From Podarcis cretensis (taxonomy: Eukaryota): DNA of 64,000 bases. This document shows, piece after piece, positions 18,911-64,000 of the stretch (positions are counted from its first letter, which is position 1; the number at the start of each line of letters is the position of its first letter). The notes beneath the pieces were generated by a model. That model did no database searches and was not told the origin of the DNA. It saw only the letters and a list, made by a program, of their open reading frames with translations. The stretch is taken from NCBI GenBank assembly GCA_951804945.1, contig OX638159.1, positions 65,844,001 through 65,908,000 of the forward strand, given 5' to 3'. The position numbers were made by a program, and so were the translations under genes.

Positions 18911-18946
18911 GCAGCTGGAGTTATTTCGGATGGGGAGAAGAGCAGA
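18911..18946 (+). CDS. UNC13B: UNC13B 36-nt cassette microexon (phase 1-1)
   Basis: Long pyrimidine tract, ttgcatgcag acceptor, A|gtatgt donor; gives C-SWSYFGWGEEQ-T between ...ASQC and FEDQDS..., homologous to the CNWNYFGWGEQH segment of Munc13-1. Confidence 0.88.
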
Positions 18947-25349: not shown

Positions 25350-25572
25350 CTTTTGAAGACCAGGACAGTGCTGTGGATGACAGAGACAGCGACTACCGCA
25401 GTGAGACCAGCAACAGCATTCCTCCCCAGTACCACACCACCTCGCAGCCCAATGCTTCGGTGCACCAGTTCCCCGTGGCTTCCCGCCTGCAGCAGCAGGG
25501 GGCCCCCCGAGAGTGCTGTGTGGAGTCCCTGCACGGCTATGATTTGGATTACCACGAACGAGCAGCCATCAG
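25350..25572 (+). CDS. UNC13B: UNC13B internal exon (223 nt)
   Basis: ttctag acceptor, AG|gtaggt donor; [41 protein letters not shown]...ERAAI, a hallmark Munc13-1/ubMunc13-2 segment. Confidence 0.97.
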
Positions 25573-26919
25573 GTAGGTACCCACTTGGAACCAGGGCGTT
25601 TTCTTTCCCCCAACCACAAATTTATTGGCAGGAGAAACTCACCGTAAGCTACCAAGACTGGGGCTGGCTGCTTCAGACTATCTTGTGGTCAGGTTCTTAA
25701 AAGAAAAGCCATTCTGCTGCTTCAGGGGTGACAGAAGAGCAGTGAGCAACAGCTGCCAGACACGGGTCCCGCCCCCCCCCCCCAGAATAGCCCAATGGGA
25801 GCAAAGAGAGCTTTGCAGCTGAGCCTCCTCCTTGCGAAGCAGAGCTGGTGGTAAGCAGTTCTTTTTGCTGTGGAATTTTGGGATCCCCAGGTTGTCGCCC
25901 TGAGTGACCAAGAGTGACTGACAATATGTGGACCAATTTCACTTGAGATTGCAAGGCGTGCTGCCCCTCAGGATGCCCCTCTTGCTGAGATTTGGCTTCT
26001 GTTGTCTCGCACCCATCCAGACTCCTACCATGATTGTGCAACCACCAGTCCCACACGCCACACACTTGCTTTCACTTTCCATTTTACGATACTAAGCTGT
26101 TTGAACCTTCTGTGTTGCTCTTGTCCTTCACGTCTCCCAACGTCTCCTTGCCTTTTTGAAGAAGGCGCCATAGCTTAGACTCCACTGTGAGTGGCCGAAC
26201 TGACCTGGAATCTGCATCACAGTCAAGTCAAATGACAAGCCGCCAGCTGTCATTAGAGAGCCGCCACTCACTAGAGGTGTCTGATAGGTGGGTGACCCTC
26301 TCCGAAGCCTCTGTGTCCGTGTCTCGTGACGTGGCTTTGGTCTGCTGGGGTTCCTGGGCTGGCTATCAGTCTTTGCATGAATTCATCCTCTTCCAAGTAT
26401 AGTTGCCGGCTGGCTGTTTTCTATTGCTTCTCTTGTTCCAACTGGGTTTTTGTTGCTGTTGACTTCCTCCTTAGGAAAAATGTAGAACGTTTCTATCAGC
26501 CCTCAAAAGAGAGAAGTGATGCAAATCATTAGCTTTCCTCCAAACTAGGCCTTTAAAATGTTAGATCTATCTAATTTATTCTCATATAATTACTTTGGTT
26601 TCTAATTGTCCTGTCAATACTGTAGCTGGAGTTTTTAGGATTCATGTTTCCAATTCTGACTTGCCCATCATAATCTTGTTTGTGCTGTCCACATGGTTAA
26701 TGGAAGTAACCCCAAATAATAATTGGAACAGTTCCTCATTTTGCGCCTTATCAACATGGTTGTTGTTTTTAATTTATTTACCTCTAAAGATAAACCACAA
26801 GTAAGATAATGGGTTTTTTCCTGTTTTGTCACATTGCAAATTTAATTAATTGATGCACTTTATTGTGTGCTTAGTGTAAAAACTTATTATTAGTCTGTTG
26901 CAAATGCCCCTTCTTAAAA

Positions 26920-27230
26920 TCAGGAGGTAAGAGTCCTGCTGGATCAGGCCAGTGGCCCTCCTTCTCCAGCATCCTGTTCTTACAGTGACTGACCAGATGC
27001 CTGGGAGAAGCTCAGAAGGAGGACCAGAGCCCTCCGCTCCACTCCGCTCCTCTCCTCTCCTGCAGTTTCCAGCAACTGGGGCTCAGAAGCATCTCTGCCT
27101 GCGACCGCGGAGGCAGAGCAGAGCCATCATGGCTAGTAGACTTTGATAGCCCTTCTCCCCCATGAATTTGTCTAATCCTCTCTTAATCCAAGTTGGTGGC
27201 CATCATCGCTTTCTGTGGGATAAACTCCGT
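26920..27230 (-). mobile_element. Old CR1-related 3' fragment
   Basis: CCTGCTGGATCAGGCCAGTGGCC..CCAGCATCCTGTTC..; related copy at ~59920-60117. Confidence 0.55.
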
Positions 27231-27630
27231 TGAGACGCTCCAGAAAGTGACTTGTAACATTTTAGGTAGCTGCTCATTGACATTTTTAATCCGCAATTCC
27301 TGTTCTTAACAGAAGCTTATAAATAACATACCATACATCACTTTATAGTATACATAACACTGGTATACATGTTTCGTGCTCTCCTACAACCCTACTATTT
27401 AGCTGCAGTAATAGTAAAAGAGAGATTCCTAACATTTCATGTTAATAAATGGATTCATTGTTATGATGTTTTAATATACTTTTTGCATGTGATTCACGAT
27501 ATCATTTGGTCTTTATGAAATGCTCCTTTGCAAGTTTTGTGTTTAAAGCTCTTTTTTCACCCCTCCTGCCCTTTCTTTTTTTTCTTTGCCCTTCTGTCCT
27601 TCTTATATTTCCCCCCTCCACACGTATCAG

Positions 27631-30600
27631 ACCAGGATCTTTAGTTAGCAATGGGAAAGTCAGGATCATTCCATTTGATTACGAAGTTGGCCAAGAACAG
27701 GAAGAGTGTGAAGAGAACTATGAGGAATTAGGCAAACAGTTAATAGAAGATTTTTTAGAAAAAAGTCACAGGACTAGAAGTTCACAGGGACGAAGGAGCC
27801 CAAGGCTCTCAAAAAGGGAGAACTTTGGCCATCATGAAAGAGGAAGATACTCACGGAAGGCTTGCCCAGAATCAGGACATCCTGATGTTCCTTGCTATCC
27901 AGAGGAATATGACACAATAGACAGGAGAAGAAAGAAGAAGCTGAGATATAACAATTTTGAAGAATGTGAGCGAACTATACTGCAAAGCAGTAGTAACCGG
28001 AGATTTTCATCAGGCAGCATTAAAGCAAGAACTGAACATAACCTATATCCTGATTATGATGAAACTGAGAAATGGGGCAGCAGCCCCATTGAAAGTGAAG
28101 AACAGTTACCGGAATATCCAGTTCTGCGTCCATACAAGAATGGCCTTCTAGTCAAGAGTGGCAAGTTGTCCTCTAACCAACGCGCAAAGCATGACTCAGG
28201 ATCAGTCCATTTTGATGGTGAAAATGAGATCCATTCAGAACAGCCAGCTCACTCTTTTGTGCCATTGGGTGCCCTTAAAGAGTTTGGCAGCTGTTCATCC
28301 AGCGTACTCCTGTACTCCCCAGTTTCTGATGATGATGATGAAATGGAAGAAATAGCAATACTTTCCCAAGCATGGCGTGAATCCAGTGTTCGCCATGTTG
28401 GAGACCTTACTGACACCCGTACTGGAAGTGCCATATCCCTGTTACCAAGGGACAAAAACTCACATAGGATGAGAGGAGGAAAGCACGGCTTTCTTAAGCA
28501 AGACTTGACCCTCTCTCCTGTTGAAGAGCCAACGGAAGAATACGTGGACACAATGGATGAACTGCAGTGCTTAGTTGAAACTGTGTCTGAATACTTAGCT
28601 GAAAAAGAGGAGGAGATTAGCAAATTCGAAACCCTTCCTGCGAGCAAAAACGCAAGCGATTGTGCCTCTCCCAAACTGGCCGGTGCTGATAAGTTGGCGG
28701 AGGAAAGTGCTCCTTTGGAACATGCAAAGCCAGCCGCTTCTGCTGCAGAGGAGAGTGAGGGCAGCAAAGGCATAACAGAGGCATTGCCAGACTTGTCTGG
28801 GGTGAAGAACACAGTCAGCTCCTTATTTAGTTCTTTCACCGAAAAAGTGGGCTCAGGAACAAAGCACTTAACAGCCTCAGTTGAAAAAATTGTATCTCCC
28901 ACACCAGAGAAATCTGAAGCCCCTGGTCAACCTGAGGGAGGCCTCACAAGTCTGTTTTCAAGTAAGCCTAAGTCTGAGGGTGCCTCTCCAGAACTGAAAG
29001 CAGAAAACAAATCGGAGGCCAAGCTGTCCACGGCAGCTTCCCCTTCTGTGACCCAGAGTAGCCGTGAGCGAGAAGCCAGTGATGCCAAGGCCAACATCCC
29101 AGAAAAGACGGCAGGAGACGACAAGGCTCCTCCAAGTGTCCAGGATGCTTCAGCAAACTCTGCTCCACCCTCTTCTCTGGACCCCAGCTCAGTCGTGAAC
29201 TCCGTCTTAGGCATGTTCAACCCTTTGAAAATCTTCTCCGAAAAGGAAGCACCGAAAAAAGAGACTGCAAAACAGGAGGAGGCTGGGAAGGTGGAAGCCA
29301 CGCATGCCAGTGCTTCTGAAGCCAAGGCAAGTGGGAAGGCAGCTGAAGGCAACGCGACGAAACCCACCAACGTTGCGCCTCCCGAAACGAGCAAGAGCGA
29401 GGCAGAGGCGAGCGCAGGCAGCGGCCCCGTCTCCTCCATCTTTGGCAAGCTGTCGAGCTCCGTTAGTTCTTTCAGCTTGAAAGCCAGTTTTGAGAGCCTG
29501 GCTGTTCCCAAGCAGCCAAGTGGGCCGCAGAAGGCTTCTGATGTGCCGCTGCAGGCCACAAGTCAGCCAGATAAAGTTGTTAAAGAACACCCAGGCATGC
29601 CAAGAAATCCACAACCTGCAGGGAAAGTGCCAGAAAACAAGCCAAGTGAAGCCAAGAAGGAGACTGGTAACGCTCCGCCGTTGGAGCAGGGGGAACCATC
29701 TGAGAGCTTTTTCAGCCCACTTAAGAAATCCTTCAGCCAGTTGCTACTCCCTTCTTCTGCTACTGAAACTGTGCCAAAGGAGCCACCACCGGGCTTGGGG
29801 AAAAGTCACCGTTCTGAAGATGATGTCAGGAAAACAAGCTCCGCAAACAGCGAACCCAACTTCCCTTTCACCAGTAAGCTCCAGATTCCCTTTTTGAGCG
29901 GTTTTGGCTTTTCAGACAAACCACCGCAGGACAACAAAGAGAAGCCAGGAATTTTCACTTCCTTCTTGAAAGCTGCTTCTGTGGAAAACCTGACAGCTTC
30001 AAAAGATCAAACTGCCCCACCAAGTTTTAGTGGCAAGCCACCAAATGCTGAAGAGGGTCACAAAAGCAGCAATGCAGAAGCTGCCAAAATGGAGTCGTTA
30101 AAGTCTCAGGCAGTTCCCGAGGCACCGCAGAGAAAAGAGGAGCCGATGAGGAAGAAAGAAACCAGTAAAGGAGATGATCTGGGTGCACCAAAACGTGGAG
30201 ATAAAGACCAGGGTGCCTCAGACACTTCAAAAATTGCACACATGGATCATGATGCCAAACGCATGGGGGCTCTGGACCACAAAGATTCCAAATGCAGGGG
30301 GGAGCTGGCAGCCCCCACAAAAGAACCTGACTTAAATGCTACAGCAGGAAAGCCAGTGCTTCCTGGTGGAATCCGAGAGGACCAGGTAATGGATGATACT
30401 CAGAAGAAGGCCCCACAGCCAGGGCAGGGGTTGCTCTCGGGCCTCTTCCGGCGGGCGTCTTCAGACCACATAACCCACACGGAAGAGTCCAATGCTAAAA
30501 ATGAAACAGACAGCCAGAAGAGCAGATCAGCTGGCTTACTTTCTGGATTATTTAGGTTTGCTTCAAGTGAAAACCTGACCGAAACTATGCCAGATAAGGC

Positions 30601-33600
30601 AAAATCAGGCTCTCTGGGCATAATGAAAATTTTTGAGAGGAGCGAAGAGACTAGTTCTGGTGACAAGTCCGTTGGCTCACATGTGACTCCTGGTCCCCAA
30701 GAAAGCACTGGGGGGAAACAGGAGACGGGCAGCTTCATAAAGAACTTCATGCAGAGGCCAAAAGAAAAAGCGGAGGAGGCAGTGACCGAGACTGCGAAGG
30801 CGAATGGTCATTTGCCTCACCCAGAACTGAGCAAAATGGACAGCGGACATGGTCCCGTCTCTTGGCAACCCCCCTCTCAGAATGCTTTAAGCTCACAGCC
30901 AAAGATACAAGACTTATCGGGGCAGCCAACTCTCTACAGACAACCTACGGATTCCAATATTTATCAAGCAGTTCTCAACGAAAGGTCAAATGCATTTCTC
31001 AATTCCTCTTTGCGGAATGCTAAATGGTATGGCCACTCGGAGCAGCCTCTTGCTCTTGAGGAAACCAGGAGCCACTCTAGCCTTGACTGGGAATATGATA
31101 CAGGAGCATTTTCTCTCAATGGCCACCAGGTGTCCTTGCCCGTTTACTACGTCTTGCAGCAGAATTCTGTCCCACTGGCTGAGTTTCTGGAATGGCCAGA
31201 CTCCAGTGATGCCGTAGTGAACTTGTGTAAAAAAGATGACAATGCCAATGTCGTGGATTGGAGGTCAAATGCCAGTTTTGATGCCCTGAGCATAGATTTC
31301 AGTGTCATGTCACACGAATCGTTTGATCAGTTAGACTTACAAGATTTAGGTCTAGAAGAAACTGAAATGTGGGCAACACATTCTCTGAATGGAAACTTTC
31401 CTCCATTTGATGACTGCAGCTATGTTTTGGAAGAGATGCCCATGGACTTAAGCTATTCGTCGGCATGTGATGGCAATATGTGGGCCTTAATTGATCAGGA
31501 GTGCTTGAGCTTGGAAGGCAGTTTTGTCTATTCATCTTATAGCCAGGAGTACCAGGACTGGCTGATGCTGCTTGAGAAGGGCGTGTGGTGGCCATCGGAA
31601 GATGGCGATTGTGGATATTACATGTACAGGGACGGTCAGTTTGTTTATTCTCTGCTCACCGACCCCACTGGGCAGTATGTCTACATTTGCACTCCTGACA
31701 CTTACACCTACCCAGACTACTGGGATTATAATTATCCGCAGAGCATTTTGCAGAGCACTGTCTTGGAAGATGACATGATTGCCGTTTGCGGTTTCAAAGT
31801 GCCTCTTGGTAATGAAGACGAGTTATTCTGGTTTGCTGAAGAGGAGCAATTGGATAATTACTCTGTAAACAAACCACTTGATTTGTCTGTAGCTCTGCAG
31901 AGAAGTGATCAACTTATGAACATGAATTTAGAGACCTTTTCGCAGATGTTTGAGGAGTCCATTTATTACCAGAGAGAGCAGCCTTTAGACTTTTCAGGGT
32001 ACAAACTTCAAAAACTCAAAGTAGACTTTAGGCCTGAGAATGACATGGAGTGGCGCTCAGAAGAGCCTCCCCTGACCCTTGACCTTAGAGTTCACTCCAG
32101 GGTGGCTTCCAGTGGGAGGCTAAAAGATGATGCTCTGCCCAAACATCTGGACAGGACCCCTGCTGTGGCAGTTTCTGAAAGTGCACAGGCAAGACGGTTT
32201 GGTTTCCATATATTCCAGTCTTCTGCCAAGCCTGAGCCTTCATCGGCGTCTCAAAGTGTTACAGAAGTCAAAACCACCGAAGAAGATAAAAAGCCACCTC
32301 TGAATAAAGTTGCATCTTTATTCTCTGCTTTGGGTGGCCTGATGGGTAAGGGTTTGGAAACGCATGAGACAGTGGAAGATGCGGCTGTGAAGAAAGAAGA
32401 ACCGGTGGTGTTGGGACACAAAAACGATGCTCTTCCAACTATGCCACCCAGGAAAACAGGAGAGGATATGCAAAACCAGCAGCACACTGAGCATGAACAA
32501 GAGAGAAAAGAGAGAGGCAGATTAGTTAAGTCTGTTAGGGATGAAAAGCCAATGATTTCTCAGAAAAAGCCTCAGCTGGTGAGGTCTTCCTCTCAGCTAA
32601 GCCAGCGTCCCGTGGATAGCAAGACCAGTCAGCTGGATAAAAGTGTTAAGCCTGCTCCCCTCCCAAGTCAACCAAAGCCCAAAGTGGGTGAGGATGAACC
32701 CAAGAAAACCCAGCCAGCCCCCAGCCAAGCGCCCACGGAGGCTGAGGGCACGTTGTTTAAAAGTGCTCTCAAGATTCTCAGCCTGGGAGAAGACTCCTCC
32801 ACAACTGCAGCACCCAATAAAAGTCAAGGCCCCGGGTTCTTTGATTTCTTTAAAACGCAGGTCAACAAAGCCCCACAGCCACCGCCAGCACCCCAAACAA
32901 ATCTGACGAAAAATGAAGCTGAGAAGAAAATGCCTCAGGAGAAAGTGGAGCCCCCAGGCATTTCATCATTCTTTGGTTCCATAGGGGATCTTTTCAAAGT
33001 CGATGCAGCCCCTGCCCCACCAAGTGCTGCTGCTCCACCAAAGAGTGGAACCCACACCTCCCTGAAACCGAATGACAACGCGGACCAGCGTAGCAGAGAG
33101 CCAAGTAAGAGCAGCACTCCTGCTCCTCAAATCCCCGTGGAGCAGGCTCGTGGGGAAGCTGCCCAGAAGGCCGCAGTCCCTAAGGAAGAACAGCATGGCA
33201 AAGTAGGCAAGGAAGCTGCTCCAGTGAAGAAGGAGGACATCCCCACCGCTGGGAATGCAGAACCCAAGCCTCCCATGCAGGCAGGACCTCGAATGGACCA
33301 AGCAAATCGCTCTCCAGGGCAGCATGGCCATGGGCCAGCTGTTGCGCCGGGACCGCAAGGCCATGCAGGAGCCATACCTGGTAAAACTCAGCCAGGAAAA
33401 GCCAGTCAGCCACCCAGGGAGTCTGGGTTTAGCCTGCCTTTTGGCTTGTCACAGGCAGCACCTTCGAAGCCTCCGCAGGCCCCGCAGCCGGCTGGCAAGA
33501 GCATCTTCTCCTCCTTCTTCGGTGCCCCAGAGAAAGCCCCTGCCCCAGCTCCAGGAGCTCCTAATGCCAAGCCCCCGGAAGCAGAGGGTCTGTTCAAGAT

Positions 33601-36450
33601 GCCTTCTTTCTTTTCCGGAGGGCCCACCGCAAAGAAGAACGTGCCTCAGAGCAGCTCCAGCTTCAGCTTTTTCAACCTGACCTCCTTCCTGGATGACAAA
33701 CCACCGGCAGCTTTTCCTGACAAGGGGAATATTGCAAAGCCACCTCAGCAGCAAGCCAGCAACCTGGGAAGGCCGCCTCAACAGCAAGCAGACGCAAAGC
33801 CATCTATGAAGCAGTGTGTTTCTGTTGACTCTGGCATTGGACTTGCCAGACAGCAGGGCTTGAAGGATAAAGAGGCAGCGGCGGGTGTTATAGAAGCAGT
33901 ACTTGGAAAGCAAGAGGCTGTTGGCCTGGAGCACAAGGCAAGTGAGTTAAAAACTCCTGAGGCTGAGCATGCTGCGGCAAGTGCTTCAGAAGTGGAAAAT
34001 GAGGTAGAGGTACCTTTTGTGGCCAGTAAACCTCCTGATGATGGTACAGATAGAGAAGACCACTCAGTCTATCCTGATCCTGGCTCTCAGGTCCCTACGC
34101 TGCAGGAAGACATTGCGCCTTCCCTTCCGGAGATTCCACAACCAGAGGAGCAGCTGCAAGACAATGCAGAAAAGAGTGGTGGTATTGTGGTGTCCTCTGA
34201 GAAGGAATTTGTTCCTTTAGTTGGGAACGAGACTTTTGAAAAGGCAGAGCCCGGTCCAGTTTGTGATGAGACCTCTGTGGCTCTTGAGCCATCTCCTGCT
34301 CCTGGAGACCTTTCACGGGAGGTTGTACCTGAAGAAAAACCAAGCGCCCCTGAAGTCAAGCCCCCGGAGCCCAAGCAACCTGATAGGACCCCAAATACTG
34401 CAGGAGAGCAGCAGGCTCAGGGCCAGAGGCCTCTCCCTCAAATGGCAGCAGCAACACCTAACCTGCAGGAGAAACCTAAAGAACCTGAGGCTGACAAATC
34501 AGTTCTAGATTCCTCAGTTGAAATGTTTTCCAGCTTCATGACGAAGATGAAACCAACCAAAACATTATCTGGCTTCTTTTCCCAGCCTCAGACTCCAGCA
34601 GCTCCTAGTGCCCAAAAGAAGAGCACTTCGTTTTTCGGCCTTTCCTCCCTGCCCACTGGGCCTCCTCCAGCATTTACAAGTGATCTCTTTGGCATTTTTA
34701 AAGGAGCAACAGATGAGACCCTTTCAAAGTCTGCAGGGAAGACCGCAGGCACTTCAAAACCCCAGGAAATGAGCCCCAGGGCAAAGGAGGCTGTGGGCCC
34801 ACTTCCTGGCAAAGGTCTCGCAAAACAAGATAAAGCCTCTAGGGATGAACTTTTAGGGACAAATGCCGGCAGCGTTTTGAAACAACCGGACCAAACCTCT
34901 AGGGCTGAACCTACAGAGAAAGAAGCTAGCAGTGACTTGAAACAAGATGCCCCTTCTGCTTTAGCAGATGAGAGTTTGGGAAACGAATGTAGAGCAGTAT
35001 TGGAAGCTGAAAGCAGTGGAAGACCTGAACATGGTCTGGAACCCTCCCTTAATGCTTCAGAAACTTTAGACTCAAGTAGGGATCAGGGCCCTGAAGTGGT
35101 ACAGCTGGACACAAACTTACTGGCATCTGATGAAGCAGGGAAGGCTGCCCCGTGTAGTCAAGAGGGACATGATGCAGTTGAGACGGTGGTGCTGCAGGAG
35201 AAGAGTGAAGTGCCTGTGGAGCCCTTAGAAAATGATGCTGTTCCTGCTGTTGAAGAGCAAGTGAGCCCGGCAGGAGAAACAGACGTTGGCCAAATGGATT
35301 TGGACAGTACACATGAGCTGGAACCCAAGGTTGGTGAGGAAGATGAACACCTGAAACTGCCAGAACTGACGGATACTTCACTAACCACTGAAGAAGTAAC
35401 TATAAAGAATGAGGCAGATGCTGATATTTGCCCACCAGACACGTTTGAGACGCTGGAGATGGAACCCAAAGCTGCTGCAGATGAGGCCCATGACTTGCCC
35501 CATCAGGATATAGAAAAGGTCCCTGAAATAAAATCTGATCTTCCTCCTGAGCAGAAAGAGCCTCTAACCACCAGCGAAGCAGCCCCAGAAGCTGCTCCCT
35601 TGAAAAGCAGTTTGGCTGGTAAGAGCAAGCCAGCCAGTGCTCCTACAGAGGCCAGCAGCACCAAGCCCATGTTTGAAATTCCAAGCATGCCCACTTTGCC
35701 CAAATTCGGCTTCATGTCTTCTGCAGACAGCAGCAAGCCATTTGGCTCCTTCTTCTCTGCACAGCCGCCTTCGGCAAGCAAGCCTGCGCCTGAGCCAGGC
35801 CTCGTGTCCAGCTTCAACAAGTTTTCCTCAAGTCTGTTTGGTGGAGGAAGTGATGAGAAAGCAGGTAAAGTAGAGGGCACTCCGGGTGCTGTGTTTGGAA
35901 AGAAGCTGGACTTCTCATTTCCGTGGCAGAAAGATGCCAAGGAGGCAAGTCTCAAGAAGGAACCAGATGTGCCAACACCAAAAGCTTCCTCCAAACAGGA
36001 GGTGGCCCCAATTGCTTCATCCAAACTAGATTTGAAGGCACCAGAAGCTGTCTTGAAAGCCGAGGAACAAGCAGTGGATGTGACCGGGGCTGATGGGAGC
36101 CCAAACCTCTCTGCCTCTGACCAGCCAGCTGACAGTGCTGCTGATTCAGACCTTTCTTCTAAGCAGCCTGACAGCAAGAGCAACGAATGCTTCGATGGTC
36201 CCACACCTGACATTCCGGTTGCGCCCAACAAGGAGCTGGAGCTTGAGGCCTCCAGAGAAATGGAAGATGAGCCAAGCACCATTTCCAGTGAGCCTCCTGG
36301 GCTCCCTTTGGAGGAACCAGCAGAAGGCGCCACACCGGTTCTGGATGAAGTAGAGCAGAAGGAAAGTGTCCCTTGTCCAGAAACGGAAACACTTGCTACT
36401 GGACTGCAGCCAGCGGAGCAGAGTAGCCCTGAGCCACTCAGGAAGAAAAG
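27631..36450 (+). CDS. UNC13B: UNC13B giant alternative exon (8,820 nt, 2,940 codons, phase 2-2); read-through stop at 36470-36472
   Basis: Uninterrupted frame; ~80-nt AG-free pyrimidine tract and atcag acceptor (27629-27630) in the phase required by exon 25350-25572; candidate AG|gccagt GC donor at 36451 in the phase required by exon 38506. From memory, human UNC13B has a long isoform with a multi-kb exon at this position. The 5' boundary is firmer than the 3' boundary. Confidence 0.85.
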
Positions 36451-36889
36451 GCCAGTAGCCAAAACGGCATGATAAATGGTGCCAACTTGTGAGCCATTTA
36501 TAATGCAAGTGCCGTAACAGTAGATGCCTGACCTCGTAGATCAGACTCCTCCTCTAGGCTGTGTTTGGCATCAGTAGTACCCAGTGGTAGGTAGAGTTGT
36601 GAACGCTAGTTGCTAGACTGCCCACCCAGAGCCCTTCCTGCCCTTCTCAACTTCTGGTTTCCTTTGTTCCAAAAGGCTGCCATGACTCTTCTCCTTTGCT
36701 CTCCCTTTGTGCTGTGTCCTTGTGAGTGAGCTGCTTTGAGTATTAGTTTCATTAACCTTCCATAGCCTAATTGTGTGCGTGAGAAAACAACTTGCACCTC
36801 TAGATGACATGGTGGGAGGGAGGAAATCGGGGGCTCTCTTGGTTTGCAGAAAGCTTAGTTGGACAACATACCAGGCATTCACATTTTAA

Positions 36890-37170
36890 GGTGGGAGAGA
36901 GACCCAGATGGCAGCAAAAGCTGTTTCAGCATAACCTGCAGCATAACTTTTCTACACCCAGAAGGGGATTCCCATGAAACATCAGATAAAAGCTTTCTGA
37001 CAGTGGCAGCTGTTGAACAGACTCCCTGGGGAGTTGGTGGACTCTCCTTTCTTGGAGAGGTTGCCTGGCCATCTGTCATGGATTCTTGAGCTGTGATTCC
37101 TGCATTTAGGGGGTTGGGCCGGATGACCCCTGGAGTCCCTTCCAACTCTGCCATGCTAAGATTCTGTGAT
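36890..37170 (+). mobile_element. Degenerate CR1 3' fragment
   Basis: CTTTCTGACAGT..GTGGACTCTCCTT..GGGGGTTGG..CCCTTCCAACTCTG..ATTCTGTGATT. Confidence 0.65.
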
Positions 37171-38407
37171 TAAAACTTCCTCCCTCCCACCAGGAGGAGT
37201 TAAACATGGCCGTGGACTATTAAAGGTACGAATGCAGAAACATCCAGTTCTTGCTGCTCGGAAGCTGTTACTGCCCAGCTAACATGATTCAATTTTTCTC
37301 TACTTTTATCAGCTGTATTCAGCGGCATTAGCTGGATGTGCTTTTCTGTGTTAGGCTGCAGGCATCTGGAGCCAATGAGGAGCTTCTTGGTGCCCCCATC
37401 AGGTCTCCAAACAAGCTGATAACTGGTTTTCTGGTTTACCATATCTCAAAAACATGCTTAATTGTTCCATATTGAAGAGAACTGCAGTGATTTCATGTTA
37501 CAGCTATCAGTATATTAGTGACTCTTGCTCCCTGTTTACCCCTGTCCGGGGGATGATTGGGGCTGGTGTTCTTGCTGCCCCTCCCTAGTTACAGAACTGC
37601 TTGTCACTAAAATCATTGCTAAATCTGCACTCCTCACCCGCCATCTCTAGACAATTGGCCCAGCAGGGATCCTGCTTCAAGCATTTCCCTTTCTGCCCAG
37701 CCTGTTTTCCAAGGAATAGATGGGATTTTTGCAGTGTAGCTGCCTTGGGTCCTCTTGCAGATGTCTCTGCCTATGTGGGCTGCCAAAAGCCAGGCGGCAC
37801 TTAAATAGCGGCCCAGAAGCATTTGTGCCCCTTCCCTCTTAGAATTCCACAATGGAGAGAGAGCGTGTGGGTGTCTTGTTGAATTAACAGCTCCTGGTGC
37901 AGTAACTCCAACCTTATAATAATCAGTCACTCCCAAGCAGCAACAGCAATGGGCCCATGTTGTGCTGGAAGACAGGGCTGATTTTTCTAAACGGCAGCTA
38001 CAACAGGATCCATTCTCAGCCGCTGGAGAAACTTAAGATTGTGTTAATGAAATGGGAGTGAAGATGAAACCCTCATGTCCCAGAATCCAAGTTCAGTTGA
38101 CATGCTGGGGGCAAACGTTGTAAGAAGGTGTTGCGCTTAGCAGCTTAGAGGTTCAATATGCACAAAACTTTTGCTGCCATTCTTAATTTTCCTGTGGCCT
38201 GTAAACAATTTATAGGATGTGCAGCAGATGATGCTATCTGTTTCTGATTGATATATCAATAGGGTCCAGAGGCTTAGGCCCAGCACAAAAATTGCAAACA
38301 CAAATTTGGAAGTGGCGGGTGACTGAGAACAGTGGCTGCAATGTGCAAGAGACATTTTGCTTGGCTAGAGTTTCCATTTGATGCTTTGGCCTGGTGTAGT
38401 TAGGATT

Positions 38408-38443
<36 letters not shown>

Positions 38444-38505
38444 GCATTCTGCTGTTTCCTGGTTGCCAAGACCTTTTGACTTACTAATGCTTTGCTCTCT
38501 CACAG

Positions 38506-38802
38506 TCCTGCCAGCAGTAGTAAGTTTGGTTCCTCCTGTAACATCAGTCAGGGAAGCTCTCAGCTGAGCGAGCTGGACCAATATCACGGGAGTGTGCCCT
38601 GCTCCGAACACGAGGACGAGCTCACAGAAGGGGTGCCTGCTGCTCCTCCTCCTCATTCAACAGAGGGCCCTGCGCCATCTAGTGAGCAGCATGAGCCCCA
38701 GGAATTGCACAGGGAAGGAGAGGGGAAGGTGAAAGAGCATGCCGCACCTCAACTACCTCCTGAAGTGGACGAGCCCAAAGAAGCCACAAAGACACCGGGC
38801 AG
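38506..38802 (+). CDS. UNC13B: UNC13B internal exon (297 nt, phase 2-2)
   Basis: TACTAAT branch point (38482-38488), cacag acceptor, AG|gtaggt donor; [28 protein letters not shown] matches ubMunc13-2. Confidence 0.95.
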
Positions 38803-51406: not shown

Positions 51407-52795
51407 TTTTTTTTCCAATAGATTTTTATTGAGATTTTAAAGGTTACAAAAAGAAAAAATAAAGAACATATATAAACAGAGAAAAAAAATAAAAATACAG
51501 AACAATACAAAAACAAAAGGAAAAAAAACAGAAAAAAGATGCTGATAATTAAAGAAAGAAAAAAAAACAAATCAATCCTTTACATAACTTTCTTTCCTTT
51601 GCTTATTTCCTTGACCTCCTCACACCTCCCTTTTTTGTATTCTAATTCAATTAGATATTTCAGCAAATCCTTTCCATCTTTATTTCTATCCTGATGATTT
51701 AGCTTAATATACTATAATTTTACATTCTGTTCTTTCACCAATTAACAATCCATTTTTACTTAATCCTTTATATCATTTCTGCTAAAACCACATTACTTCA
51801 TTCCAACATTCTTCTAATATTCCTTAATTTTACAGTGTTTCTGTAGATAAACTTTAAATTTCTTCCAATCTTCTTCCACCAACTCTTCTCCTTGGTCTCG
51901 GATTCTGCCAGTCATTTCCGCCAGTTCCATATAGTCCATTACCTTCATCTGCCATTCTTCCCGGGTGGGTAAATCTTGTGTCTTCCAGTACTTTGCAATA
52001 AGTATTCTTGCTGCTGTTGTGGCATACATAAAGAAAGTTCTATCCTTCTTTGACACCAATTGGCCAACCATGCCCAGGAGAAAGGCCTCTGGTTTCTTCA
52101 GAAAGGTATATTTAAATACCTTTTTCATTTCATTATAAATCATCTCCCAGAAAGTCTTAATCCTTGGGCATGTTCACCAAAGGTGAAAGAATGTACCTTC
52201 AATCTCTTTACACTTCCAACATTTATTATCGGGCAAGTGATAAATTTTTGCAAGCTTGACTGGCGTCATGTACCATCTGTAGATCATTTTCATTATATTC
52301 TCTCTTAAGGCATTACATGCCGTAAACTTCATACCTGTGGTCCATAACTGTTCCCAGTCAGCCATCATAATGTTGTGTCCAACATCTTGTGCCCATTTAA
52401 TCATAGCAGATTTCACTGTTTCATCCTGAGTATTCCATTTCATCAGCAAGTTATACATTCTTGACAAATTCTTAGTTTTAGAGTCTAACAGTTCTATTTC
52501 CAATTTTGATTTTTCCACCTGAAAGCCAATTTTCTTATCCAAATTGTAAGCCTCCATTATTTGGTAGTAATGAAGCCAATCTCGCACTTTGTTTTTTAGT
52601 TTTTCAAAACTCTGCAGTTTTAATCTGTCTCCTTCTTGTTCCAAAATTTCCCAATATTTTGGCCAATTGGCCTCCATATTGAGCTTTTTCTGACCCTTTG
52701 CTTCCATTGGTGACAACCACCTTGGAGTTTTGTTTTCAAGCAAATCCTTATAACTTATCCAGACATTAAACAGTGCTTTCCTGACAATATGGTTT
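51407..52795 (-). mobile_element. 5'-truncated L1-clade LINE with 17-bp TSD
   Basis: ORF2 C-terminus with CCHC zinc knuckle (CWKC..GTFFHLW*TC, one premature stop at 52174-52176), T-rich 3' UTR, AATAAA, short poly(A); ACCTATTCCCATTTTGA at 51390-51406 and 52796-52812. Confidence 0.92.
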
Positions 52796-53612
52796 ACCTA
52801 TTCCCATTTTGAGAATGTGTGTCCTTAAAACTCCATCAGAGACGTCTGCGAACCAAGGGAGCCAAAGGCACAAAGAGGACCGCCCAACAAACAAGCATTG
52901 AGAACTTTGACCAGGTTCTCAGGAGGGGATGAAGAGCTTGTGTTTTGTGGGGTGGGAGGGTACTTTGCACACTTCTCAAGAAGAGACGTGAGGAGCACCT
53001 GCTGATGTGAGCCTCGGGGTGACAAGTTGGTCTTGAGGAAGCCTCATGAAGTGGAGCCTTAAGAGGAGAAGCTCCATCCTTGTTGAGAGAGTTCCACCTC
53101 TCCTTTTGGGCCCCCAAAAGGCTGCGAGGTGATTTCCAAGTTCCAACTCATAAATACGGTAAAAAATAATAACTCTGAAGCAAAAGGCAAGAAACCGATT
53201 AAACTAGTAGCGAGGAGTAGGCATAAATGCAAGTCAGTTTAAAGTAATATAAAGCGTAACAGCAGGAGTTGAAGAGGTTTAGGCAGAGAGTTCTGGCTTT
53301 CCTTCCTTCCAGTGGGGAATTTTTGTTCTTGTTGGGTGTTGGGTCACACAGGCTGGTTGTCGGCTAGCCACTCCCCAGGGCTGCTGGGGAGCCACCTTGC
53401 TCTCTCTCCGTGCCCAAGTTTGCGTGCACCACTGATGATGTTTTGGCAGTTAATGCCGGAGTGGGTGTACAACCGATGATGAAGAGATATGGGATAAAAA
53501 ATACCCCCCCACCCGCAACTATGCAACTGCAATTAGCTGCAGCCCGTGCAACCTCTCCCTTTCCTAGCGAGCTGTGAAGAAATCAGATGTGGGTGCTCTG
53601 CTCCGTGTCCGT

Positions 53613-61723: not shown

Positions 61724-62030
61724 TGTGAGTCGCTTTTTTCTCCACTGACTCCGATACCCAGCGTCTCTGTCCCTTCTCTTGACAGCAGCTTCTGATGAGT
61801 CTTAATCCTTGGCCGAGAGAGCCTTGCTGGGCAGGCAGCGAGGGGCAGAGGCCTCTGCCGCTTTGTGGCATGATGAGAGGGCGCCAACACGGCCACTGAG
61901 GATGTGCGCCGGCAGAGGCACCCTAAGGCTAGAAGATGACATTGCTTCTGTGCTTAGAACATCTGCTGTGAAACTCCTAACTGGGCAGCCCTCTCAGAAG
62001 CAGAAGGCCCTGCTGTTTCTGGAGGAGAAG

Positions 62031-64000
62031 ATGAAGAAGCTTCTGCAAGGGCCGGCGAGCGAGCTCTCCCTGAGCCAGAATCACCACCAGCAGCTTTCCC
62101 TGGTGGAAATAGAAACGGACACCTTTGTCTGTGGCGTCAATAGGAAATCTGCAAGCAGTGACTTTTCCGCTGCTCAGGGGAGGAGCCCTGGGGCTAGGGA
62201 GGCCAGTAGAGGTGGGCTGGACTGGGATGGATACATCAAAGCCCCACGGGCGTTAGTTCCAAGCCAGTGTGACTCAGGGGGTGTCTCTGGCCGCCTGGCC
62301 GCAGAGAGCCTTCTGGAGCAAATGGAGAGCCCCGAGGGGCAAGCTGATCTCGCTGCCCTGAGCCTTGGCACTGGCTGGAGGGGAGTTGCTGGGGAAAGAG
62401 AAGGGGAAGGGCCCTGCCCTCCAAACAAGCCCCTCGCCTACACTCCCTGCAGCCCTGAGCCCAGAGACCGCTCTGCCGATGTCATTGAGTACATTGTGAA
62501 AGAGCTCCAAGGGATAAGTCGCATCCAGACCGAGATTGCTGAGCTCCAGCAGCACCTCACCTTGATCAAAGGCTCTGTGGATGAAGTCTCCAGCTGCGTG
62601 GACAGTGTTCTGAGCGAGATTGAGGGCCTGCAGAGCAGCTCTGGCCCCACCAGCAAAAACTCCCCATTGCCAAAGGCCAAGGCCAGGGAGCCCCTCCTGG
62701 GAGGGCCCATCAGAGAGCCAGTGTTGTATTTTTATGGCATCCCAGAGCAGGAGGGGGAGAACACCAAGGAGCTAGTCCACCGTTTCTTGTCAGAGTACCA
62801 CTGTTTCAATGGCATTCAGCGTAGCAAGTACATCAAGGATGCCTACAGATCTGGTGCAGCAACAGGCAAGCAGCTGGCCCCACGACCCGCTGTTGTAAAG
62901 CTTGCTAATGCTGAGCAGCGAGATTTCATTCTCCAGAAATCGATTCTTTTGCAAAGTGCAGGAGTTACCATTGTGGCCAGCAGTGAGCAAAGCCAGCAGA
63001 ATGGCCAGGTGGGTCCTGGGGCACAGCTGGGCACCTTGCCCTCGTCAGGCCAGAGTGGGAACCACTGGGGCTCCCTGCACATTCGTGGGGAAGTGGTCAG
63101 GACGGACGGAGATGGGCAGCTCCAAGTGGACTCTTGCCAAAACGCTTGCCAAGAGGTTCATTGCCGTGTAGGGGAAAGGCTTAACTTTCAACCAAAATCC
63201 ACCCTACCTAGGAAGAGCAACTTAATTGCTGAACTTGAAGAAAAAGTGGGGAGAGTTGTGCAAATAATGGGCAGTAGTGAGCAGACTTTGCACAAAAACA
63301 GCTCTTCCGCTGGAGTCCTTGATGCGTCCCACAAGAAGCTGGAAGGCCCTGGGCATGAGAACAAAGGCAGGGATTCCTTGCCATCCCCAGAGTGCTTGGG
63401 CAAGGTGCCCGCCTTGTGTGAGGGAGGAGGGGGACGTGCCTCAGATGCTGAAAATGCCACCAAGGGCAGCTCCTCTCCTGTGGAAGAGGACCAAGCAGGA
63501 GGGCTGACTCCAGGGGAAAGCGAGACAGACTGTGATGCCACCACACTGGAGTTTCTCAGTCCTGAGCAAGTCAGTCTCCTGGAGGAGGCACCGGTGGCCA
63601 TGACCACTCCTGGCTGTGACGGTGCTCTGTGCAAATTGGTTGACAGCAGTGAGACGCTCAAAGACATGATCCAGATTGACCTGAACGAGCAAGACCCAAC
63701 TGATCAGGTCTTCAGGGATGTCCTAGAAAATTCCCAGTACTTCCTTGAGCACTCTCGGGACAGCATTGATCTCGTGGACATGAGGTTTTACACTAACAAA
63801 CTGGGCAAAGCGCTGAATCACTTCCGGTCTGCACTACAGGTGGTGTTCCACAAACTGGAGACCGGGGACCCAGAAGTCCTCCTTGAAGGGGAAAAGAGCT
63901 TCCATATGAACAGTGAGCCAGCACCTGCCCTCCATAGCCCAAGTGTGCATGGCAGCTTGGATACCTTTGCTGAAACTCCCCCTAGTCAGTCTTCTGAGAG
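62031..64000 (+). CDS. UNC13B: UNC13B bMunc13-2 (brain-type) N-terminal exon, 3'-partial; exon begins at acceptor 61786/61789; upstream in-frame ATG at 61902
   Basis: Translated by hand, open to the window end: MKKLLQ...DVIEYIVKELQGISRIQTEIAELQQHL..SVDEVSSCVDSVLSEIEGL...KLGKALNHFRSALQVVFHKLE (63798-63860, matches a bMunc13-2 CaM site as I recall it). Absent from the ORF track because no stop falls in the window. Confidence 0.93.
   Translation, partial: MKKLLQGPASELSLSQNHHQQLSLVEIETDTFVCGVNRKSASSDFSAAQGRSPGAREASRGGLDWDGYIKAPRALVPSQCDSGGVSGRLAAESLLEQMESPEGQADLAALSLGTGWRGVAGEREGEGPCPPNKPLAYTPCSPEPRDRSADVIEYIVKELQGISRIQTEIAELQQHLTLIKGSVDEVSSCVDSVLSEIEGLQSSSGPTSKNSPLPKAKAREPLLGGPIREPVLYFYGIPEQEGENTKELVHRFLSEYHCFNGIQRSKYIKDAYRSGAATGKQLAPRPAVVKLANAEQRDFILQKSILLQSAGVTIVASSEQSQQNGQVGPGAQLGTLPSSGQSGNHWGSLHIRGEVVRTDGDGQLQVDSCQNACQEVHCRVGERLNFQPKSTLPRKSNLIAELEEKVGRVVQIMGSSEQTLHKNSSSAGVLDASHKKLEGPGHENKGRDSLPSPECLGKVPALCEGGGGRASDAENATKGSSSPVEEDQAGGLTPGESETDCDATTLEFLSPEQVSLLEEAPVAMTTPGCDGALCKLVDSSETLKDMIQIDLNEQDPTDQVFRDVLENSQYFLEHSRDSIDLVDMRFYTNKLGKALNHFRSALQVVFHKLETGDPEVLLEGEKSFHMNSEPAPALHSPSVHGSLDTFAETPPSQSSE

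Follow-up and report, generated by a model that had tools for sequence, protein, structure and literature searches.

Introduction

The giant exons of ankyrin-G and ankyrin-B are single multi-kilobase vertebrate exons that encode a long disordered arm carrying short binding motifs. The same plan is found here in another gene, with other motifs and in another cell compartment. The gene is UNC13B, which encodes the priming factor Munc13-2, and the element is a giant cassette exon in a 64,000-nucleotide (nt) stretch of the lizard Podarcis cretensis (contig OX638159.1, positions 65,844,001 to 65,908,000), referred to below as the window, which covers the 5′ part of this lacertid gene.

Piccolino, a ribbon-cell splice product of PCLO, is likewise a long disordered chain with PxDLS and amphipathic lipid packing sensor (ALPS) motifs (PMC3735604, PMC13394108, bioRxiv 10.64898/2026.04.28.721253). 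As described there, it arises by intron retention and truncation, and its intronic stop is conserved in four mammals (PMC3735604). Seven PxDLS motifs link it to RIBEYE, and Bassoon has PxDLS too (bioRxiv 10.64898/2026.04.28.721253, PMC10760060); vesicle tethering is attributed to the one described ALPS motif (PMC13394108). Giant Munc13-2 differs in that a cassette adds 3–4 PxDLS-type and about 11 ALPS-like motifs to a priming factor that keeps its MUN domain. An earlier reading of the window from its sequence alone (the sequence-only reading) had likened the locus to Piccolo/Piccolino; the likeness holds in motif content and cell type, and less so in truncation.

At photoreceptor ribbons, ubMunc13-2 is reported as the only Munc13 (PMC7660176). 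A 2024 review distinguishes two variants of Munc13-2, places the ubiquitous variant at ribbons and gives photoreceptor RIM2 as lacking the Munc13-binding domain (PMC11536687). The short ubMunc13-2 (~1,590 amino acids (aa) in pika models) has its promoter-side C2A exons and downstream exons in common with the giant form, is without the ~2,900-aa arm and, according to mouse tables, is the minor product of this splice choice in retina. Since ribbons use only ubMunc13-2, RIM2 has no Munc13-binding domain there, and PxDLS and ALPS motifs have these roles in Piccolino, we propose that Munc13-2 carries its own ribbon anchor and vesicle-capturing arm. Our preferred reading, at a probability of about 0.58, is a retina-spliced giant Munc13-2 of ~4,500 aa, produced with Musashi helping a GC donor, which would attach to CtBP/RIBEYE by its PxDLS motifs and hold vesicles with its ALPS-like helices.

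The giant exon of UNC13B

Positions 27467–36469 of the window are open in one frame for 3,001 codons from stop to stop; the runner-up across the six frames has 731. As the sequence-only reading held, the exon within this frame (27631–36450) is exactly 2,940 codons long and of phase 2 at both ends. All four surrounding splice sites are phase 2: the donor CAG/GTAGGT (25572), a pyrimidine-tract acceptor ATCAG/ACC (27631), the exit AAG/GCCAGT (36450) and the acceptor ACAG/TCC (38506), where the slash marks the junction. The non-canonical exit, also pointed out earlier, proved to be the best frame-compatible donor in the final 1.5 kb of the frame; in a simple weight matrix it ranks 18 of 1,235 GT/GC sites of all phases in 27631–38500. 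The gene is identified as UNC13B/ubMunc13-2 by its in-frame neighbours, C2A exons on the 5′ side and canonical exons on the 3′ side (tblastn with five annotated proteins; the skip junction is in frame and occurs in RNA-like contigs). The C1, C2B, MUN and C2C exons lie beyond the window, and full-length gene models joining them to the giant exon exist.

The exon's protein is 94% identical to that of Podarcis muralis and 91% to the Lacerta agilis and Zootoca models. The Lacerta agilis RefSeq model XP_033020586.1 (4,525 aa) uses both exon ends of the window exactly. The long human isoform of which the sequence-only reading spoke is indeed annotated (NP_001358118.1, isoform 6, 4,340 aa); 2,749 of its residues, about 63%, come from this exon (chr9:35300166-35308412). 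It agrees with the lizard in the orthologous exon, the donor position (as does the mouse exon described below) and the motifs, and differs in an acceptor 303 nt further in. Both the Lacerta agilis and human models join at K/SP(A/T)SS, equivalent to 36450/38506 in the window. A central-region query matched 297 proteins, the best 120 of which come from lizards, snakes, turtles, birds, mammals, axolotl, Xenopus and sturgeon. Among 50% representatives there were 63 matches, two being a catshark protein and an arowana UNC13B, and many of the others look teleost-like, at up to 5,000 aa. By homology, then, the giant exon is a UNC13B cassette kept across jawed vertebrates, from catshark to human.

Mammal, turtle and bird models often enter the exon ~100 codons further in (R/YPQ..YDT), at an inner acceptor that corresponds to ~27890–27900 (+). 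The lizard has a Cys at this place, so the inner acceptor may be lost in lacertids.

The exon and the long isoform are already annotated or catalogued in databases and supplements, and the human and mouse counterparts stand in supplementary tables as retina- or rod-enriched and Musashi-promoted. Among the open-access papers and preprints searched (subscription journals lay outside the search), no title or abstract described the giant form, the motifs it carries or any link between Munc13-2 and RIBEYE, and no functional description was found. Unc13b is absent from the main texts of PMC4991804, PMC6952364 and PMC9509328, and the passage of PMC11292464 that cites the long RefSeq entry does so as a cloning reference only.

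Inclusion and skipping

The mouse counterpart is MmuEX1027355 (chr4:43169968-43178334, 8,367 nt), matched by gene, position, frame and flanking sizes, not by sequence; flanking exons and downstream intron measure 235, 315 and 1,993 nt in mouse versus 223, 297 and 2,055 nt in lizard. In the tables of PMC4991804, which count exon-body reads, its percent spliced in (PSI) is 0.91–0.94 in retina. Junction-based values reach 94 in rods and are 0 in each of nine whole organs, brain among them, with 10 in olfactory neurons and 4.9 in dorsal root ganglion, most brain neuron types being listed without data; human testis has 4 (tables of PMC6952364). A third table gives 96.3 in retina versus 2.1 elsewhere (PMC9303857), and a fourth, from junctions only, 0.92–0.96 in controls and 0.54–0.75 in Msi1/Msi2 knockout (PMC9509328). 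The main choice at this exon is inclusion versus skipping, rather than splice versus stop. Splicing through the GC donor to give the ~4,500-aa form, one of two fates considered by the sequence-only reading, is well supported by the joining residue common to lacertid and human models and by the 92–96% inclusion in the mouse retina junction tables, and we hold it very probable that this form is spliced in lizard retina.

Eight of 20 listed lizard runs were examined, none on record as RNA and with tissues not stated. Of the three junctions that the sequence-only reading had proposed to count (25572/27631, 36450/38506 and 25572/38506), they gave the skip junction 25572/38506 alone, in three runs (X1, X14 and X16). 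In X1, X4, X5, X7 and X10 the intron is covered at about exon depth, and those runs therefore cannot show inclusion; X14, X15 and X16 hold scattered low-depth pieces. The eight runs are evidence neither for nor against expression of the giant exon.

Conserved motifs in the arm

The encoded chain is rich in S, P, E, A and K, as in a disordered chain, and its conservation is in islands. The earlier description of a mostly disordered spacer is right as to composition but understates the content, which includes conserved PxDLS-type and ALPS-like motifs and a small predicted folded unit (Table 1).

A core at 31380–32120 contains PMDLS, PLDLS, PLDFS and a degenerate LDLR; the human counterparts are PIDLS, PLDLS, PLDFS and LDLR. 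Of 28 sequences ranging from sturgeon to chimpanzee, 26 have the full set of three P-motifs and the other two, axolotl and Xenopus, have two each; the full set is also found in catshark. The strict form PxDL[ST] occurs in 159 of the 163 homologues with a full core, a non-independent set with many near-duplicates and many primate isoforms. Three PxDLS-type motifs are seen versus 0.07 in shuffles, by patterns (the loose PxDLS one included) chosen after seeing the data. In the AlphaFold2 model (mean pLDDT, the predicted local distance difference test score, 50), motifs 1 and 2 lie in segments of pLDDT<50 and are probably exposed; motif 3 borders a predicted strand, in a model of low confidence. 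Some teleost-like homologues (P0144–P0166), up to 5,000–6,000 aa long, carry 4–6 PxD[LF][ST] motifs, with a second cluster ~1,000 aa past the core.

PxDLS binds CtBP and the RIBEYE B domain in a cleft that is accessible in ribbon sheets, and CtBP1 and RIBEYE are reported to have the same cleft (bioRxiv 10.64898/2026.04.28.721253, PMC10760060). To judge from sequence, the giant exon has the conserved PxDL[ST] of CtBP/RIBEYE ligands, and its motifs are likely to bind these proteins. Three CtBP-family exons occur in the lizard's own genome (L006:1483-1635, L007:1456-1692 and L008:1486-1668); the first matches the RIBEYE-type CtBP2 model of Lacerta agilis (998 aa) with full identity, and the gene of the proposed partner is therefore present.

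The predicted folded unit between motifs 1 and 2 is the most conserved part of the exon. It matched no known fold (Foldseek, none at E<=0.001; best VIA Z 3.2), the search model being of low confidence. There was no Pfam family above cut-off in the giant exon, nothing usable in the ESM Atlas and no paralogous core elsewhere in the lizard's own genome, where the core matched only itself; nor did Pfam and the own-genome search detect sequence homology to Piccolo or Bassoon domains.

Beyond the core, the majority of the conserved islands are S/G/F/L-rich amphipathic segments. Our filter for ALPS motifs, an approximation of the Drin criteria without a positive control, found 11 in the lizard exon versus 1.7 in shuffles and 2.3 in block shuffles, and also scored 4 matches in the 1,330-aa folded C-terminal part. 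Twelve other species have 9–13 each, versus 2–4 in whole or block shuffles. Six of the 11 lizard motifs are kept in place in at least 10 of these 12 species, and four are common to all 13. Under the same approximate filter the segments have the features of ALPS sequences (amphipathic, S/T/G with bulky hydrophobics, few charges), and their helical periodicity survives a local-composition control. We lean, by a little, towards the view that they bind vesicles.

The GC donor and the UAG cluster

Among 174 homologues, 51 have the K/S-P join and 74 an R-P/L/Q-V read-through end, with 26 unclassified and 23 showing other letters. At the exit of the exon the spliced residue is AG/T (Ser) and the read-through AG/G (Arg) followed by Pro, and therefore every species reading R-P-V has a GC donor. 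Conservation of this donor, which the sequence-only reading had suggested checking, is thus seen in the R-P-V species, as deduced from protein ends and not from DNA, and in R-L-V species (birds, many fishes) GC and GT are indistinguishable.

Nine TAG triplets lie at +6 to +166 past the donor. The cluster is the densest of the 64-kb window on either strand at sizes of 100–250 nt, is tied at 300 nt, and is matched or exceeded elsewhere at 400 nt; nine were reached in 29 of 2,000 dinucleotide shuffles of the segment. According to PMC4991804, Musashi activates photoreceptor exons via UAG clusters in the downstream intron. The lizard cluster fits this rule, and lower inclusion without Msi1/Msi2 is found for the mouse counterpart in the published table. 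Known Musashi-regulated exons (Ttc8 exon 2A, Prom1 and a 39-nt Unc13b exon) resemble the giant exon in their downstream-intron UAG clusters and in being reduced in Msi1/Msi2 knockout, but they are tens of bases long, whereas the giant exon has 8.4–8.8 kb, a GC donor and only partial Musashi dependence. The Musashi-dependent 39-nt Unc13b exon is not the giant exon but a separate one further downstream, and PMC7948980 too is concerned with an exon other than the giant one. We infer that the weak GC donor would make skipping the default and that Musashi would turn the giant exon on in retina.

The proposed mechanism

The mechanism would start from elements present in the sequence: a phase 2-2 exon with a GC donor and, downstream of it, a UAG cluster. 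In the mouse tables, and by extension probably in the lizard, 92–96% inclusion in retina and rods falls after loss of Musashi1/2. Translation would then put a flexible arm of ~2,900 aa between C2A and C1-C2B-MUN. Judging from motif conservation, the PxDLS motifs could sit in the cleft of the RIBEYE B domain or of CtBP1/2 and form a RIM-independent anchor at the ribbon base; finally, in the weakest step, the amphipathic motifs might catch synaptic vesicles and pass them to the MUN domain.

Several observations weigh against this proposal, beside the late choice of motif patterns, the strand at motif 3 and the indirect matching of the mouse exon given above. No junction into or out of the giant exon was seen in the eight of 20 listed lizard runs, and the material searched held no protein-level evidence of the giant form. 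[quoted passage not shown] Loss of Munc13-2 cuts the electroretinogram b-wave by only ~30% and leaves membrane-associated vesicles unchanged, as summarised in PMC11536687. A human event with the same acceptor has an internal end at 1,643 nt (table of PMC9303857). The mouse exon has a PSI of 0.79–0.96 in photoreceptor-less Aipl1-null retina (table of PMC4991804), and therefore its inclusion is not rod-only and not wholly Musashi-dependent. In the tables of PMC6952364 its PSI is 1.3 in cochlear hair cells, and human tissues free of ribbons include it (cerebellum 21–24, skeletal muscle 11).

The last two values, together with the cleft common to CtBP1 and RIBEYE, suit an alternative in which the same giant isoform is made and its PxDLS motifs bind CtBP1 in ordinary active zones, like those of Bassoon, or else another partner, the ribbon link being incidental. 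Inclusion is, however, by far highest in retina and rods, where Munc13-2 sits at ribbons, and we regard this alternative as improbable.

A close second to it is a flexible-spacer role for the exon, with a small folded domain in the chain and the PxDLS-like and F-rich motifs kept for folding or self-association (as condensate stickers) and not for CtBP or membranes. The chain has a disordered composition, the motifs flank the most conserved predicted folded unit, and AlphaFold2 places a long helix after PLDLS and a strand after PLDFS. Against this, one known consensus is matched three separate times from shark to human, teleost-like homologues have up to 5–6 such motifs including PVDLT, the Piccolo form of the motif, and the helical periodicity survives the composition control.

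The stop form

Past 36450 the read-through is R-P-V-A-K-T-A, followed by TGA at 36470–36472, seven codons past the skipped donor as the sequence-only reading had seen, and then by TAA. This stop lies inside the element ATAAATGG (36468–36478, +), ~20 nt past the GC donor, which might act in splicing or as a poly(A) signal. The element appears to give I-N-G in mammals and frog, N-K-W in pit vipers and termination in lizards, as would be expected if different clades translate a single ATAAATGG sequence in three different frames; its conservation looks to be that of an RNA element rather than of a stop codon. The snake N-K-W reading implies AATAAA. Across homologues the stop falls 0 to >20 codons past the motif and is not kept in frame, so that the conservation of the stop across vertebrates that the sequence-only reading had thought worth checking is not found. 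Its two ATTAAA hexamers are present (37169 and 37219, the former beside a high-copy repeat), but two are no more than the 2.2 expected at the window's rate, and they were rejected as evidence of a terminal exon.

These facts bear on the alternative that a regulated terminal exon yields, as the main product, a ~3,200-aa C2A-plus-arm scaffold without MUN, a true Piccolino analogue. Models of Zootoca, Pogona, Paroedura, Crotalus, Taeniopygia and Pseudopipra end at a stop, the mouse retina annotation of PMC4991804 includes an exon end 594 nt past the donor, one lizard contig (depth 2.2) crosses the donor, and the donor is weak wherever readable. Several predicted models misplace the junction, however, and the stop models may therefore be failures at the GC donor; the mouse libraries were depleted of ribosomal RNA and include pre-mRNA; and a stop that varies in position and frame by clade, with hexamers at chance, weakens the MUN-less form that the sequence-only reading had offered, leaving gene models and one extended mouse exon end behind it. 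As the main product it is less likely than either alternative above; a regulated MUN-less product of some kind is doubtful, though less so.

It is most improbable that full translation of the transcript is rare and that retinal Munc13-2 works in its short skipped form. The lack of protein-level evidence seen and the mild knockout phenotype speak for this, but a frame of 8–15 kb that has stayed open from shark to human, with its protein motifs conserved, speaks against it. We expect with good confidence that the giant form is translated.

Other features of the window

The optional exon just 5′ of the giant exon is 90% identical to a Phrynosoma model and 69% to an eagle model (tblastn), and gave no junction among the lizard runs examined. 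It has a tandem acceptor GAAG/AAG/G and also occurs in Phrynosoma and in several models from birds; in mouse, a 33-nt exon enriched in photoreceptors occupies a comparable position. This exon, the conserved motif core and the UAG cluster were absent from the sequence-only reading.

A 36-nt in-frame exon at 18911–18946 (+) is spliced to 25350 in run X15 and is optional in Zootoca models (3,208 versus 3,196 aa). A 731-codon frame at 61806–63998 (+) runs off the window and is likely the brain-type bMunc13-2 first exon. High-copy interspersed repeats, seen as depth spikes in the runs, lie one in each flanking intron (~26930–27220 and 36990–37150). Two open stretches of low GC at 51817–52797 (−) we take to resemble the C-terminal end of LINE ORF2.

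Table 1. Features of the UNC13B locus in the window (a slash marks a splice junction)
Feature	Position	Strand	Basis
UNC13B giant cassette exon	27631..36450	+	8,820 nt = 2,940 codons; ends match Lacerta agilis XP_033020586.1; homologues
Constitutive ubMunc13-2 exon, 5′ of giant exon	25350..25572	+	donor CAG/GTAGGT, phase 2; tblastn with annotated UNC13B proteins; skip junction
Optional exon, 126 nt = 42 codons, phase 2-2	26162..26287	+	tblastn, splice sites
Constitutive exon, 3′ of giant exon	38506..38802	+	acceptor ACAG/TCC, donor CAG/GTAGGT; skip junction
Weak GC 5′ splice site AAG/GCCAGT	36451..36456	+	K/S junction versus K-R-P/L-V read-through across vertebrates
Nine TAG triplets, putative Musashi-type intronic enhancer	36456..36616	+	densest TAG stretch of window
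In-frame TGA TAA of read-through	36470..36475	+	inside ATAAATGG element
PxDLS motif 1, PMDLS	31439..31453	+	conservation
PxDLS motif 2, PLDLS, canonical	31874..31888	+	P and D sole invariant columns of alignment A2
PxDLS-like motif 3, PLDFS	31982..31996	+	conservation
Fourth, degenerate motif, LDLR	32078..32089	+	conserved core
Small predicted folded unit, helix and beta strands, Trp/Tyr-rich	31535..31726	+	AlphaFold2 block pLDDT 63–79; identity peak 0.71
Conserved acidic segment	28532..28681	+	mean identity 0.64 across 9 non-squamates versus ~0.1–0.4 in most bins
Eleven ALPS-like amphipathic S/G/F/L motifs, 42 nt each	28802..35839	+	own approximate filter
Starts of the ALPS-like motifs	28802, 29186, 29432, 30521, 32318, 32741, 32957, 33491, 34496, 34673, 35798	+	

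Implications

At somewhat less than even odds, the retinal ribbon 'ubMunc13-2' may be mostly an unrecognised Musashi-driven isoform of ~0.5 MDa, in which a Piccolino-like ribbon anchor and a multi-ALPS vesicle tether are fused to the priming machine. Such an isoform would join Piccolino and Bassoon among the PxDLS ligands of RIBEYE and would explain how Munc13-2 comes to be at the ribbon base although photoreceptor RIM2 cannot bind it. Were retinal Munc13-2 mostly giant, work on ribbon priming would have assumed the wrong molecule, and an edit of a 15-base motif would be a direct test of Munc13-2 anchoring. The large share of the long human isoform that the exon makes up bears on the reading of UNC13B variants in retinal and cerebellar disease.

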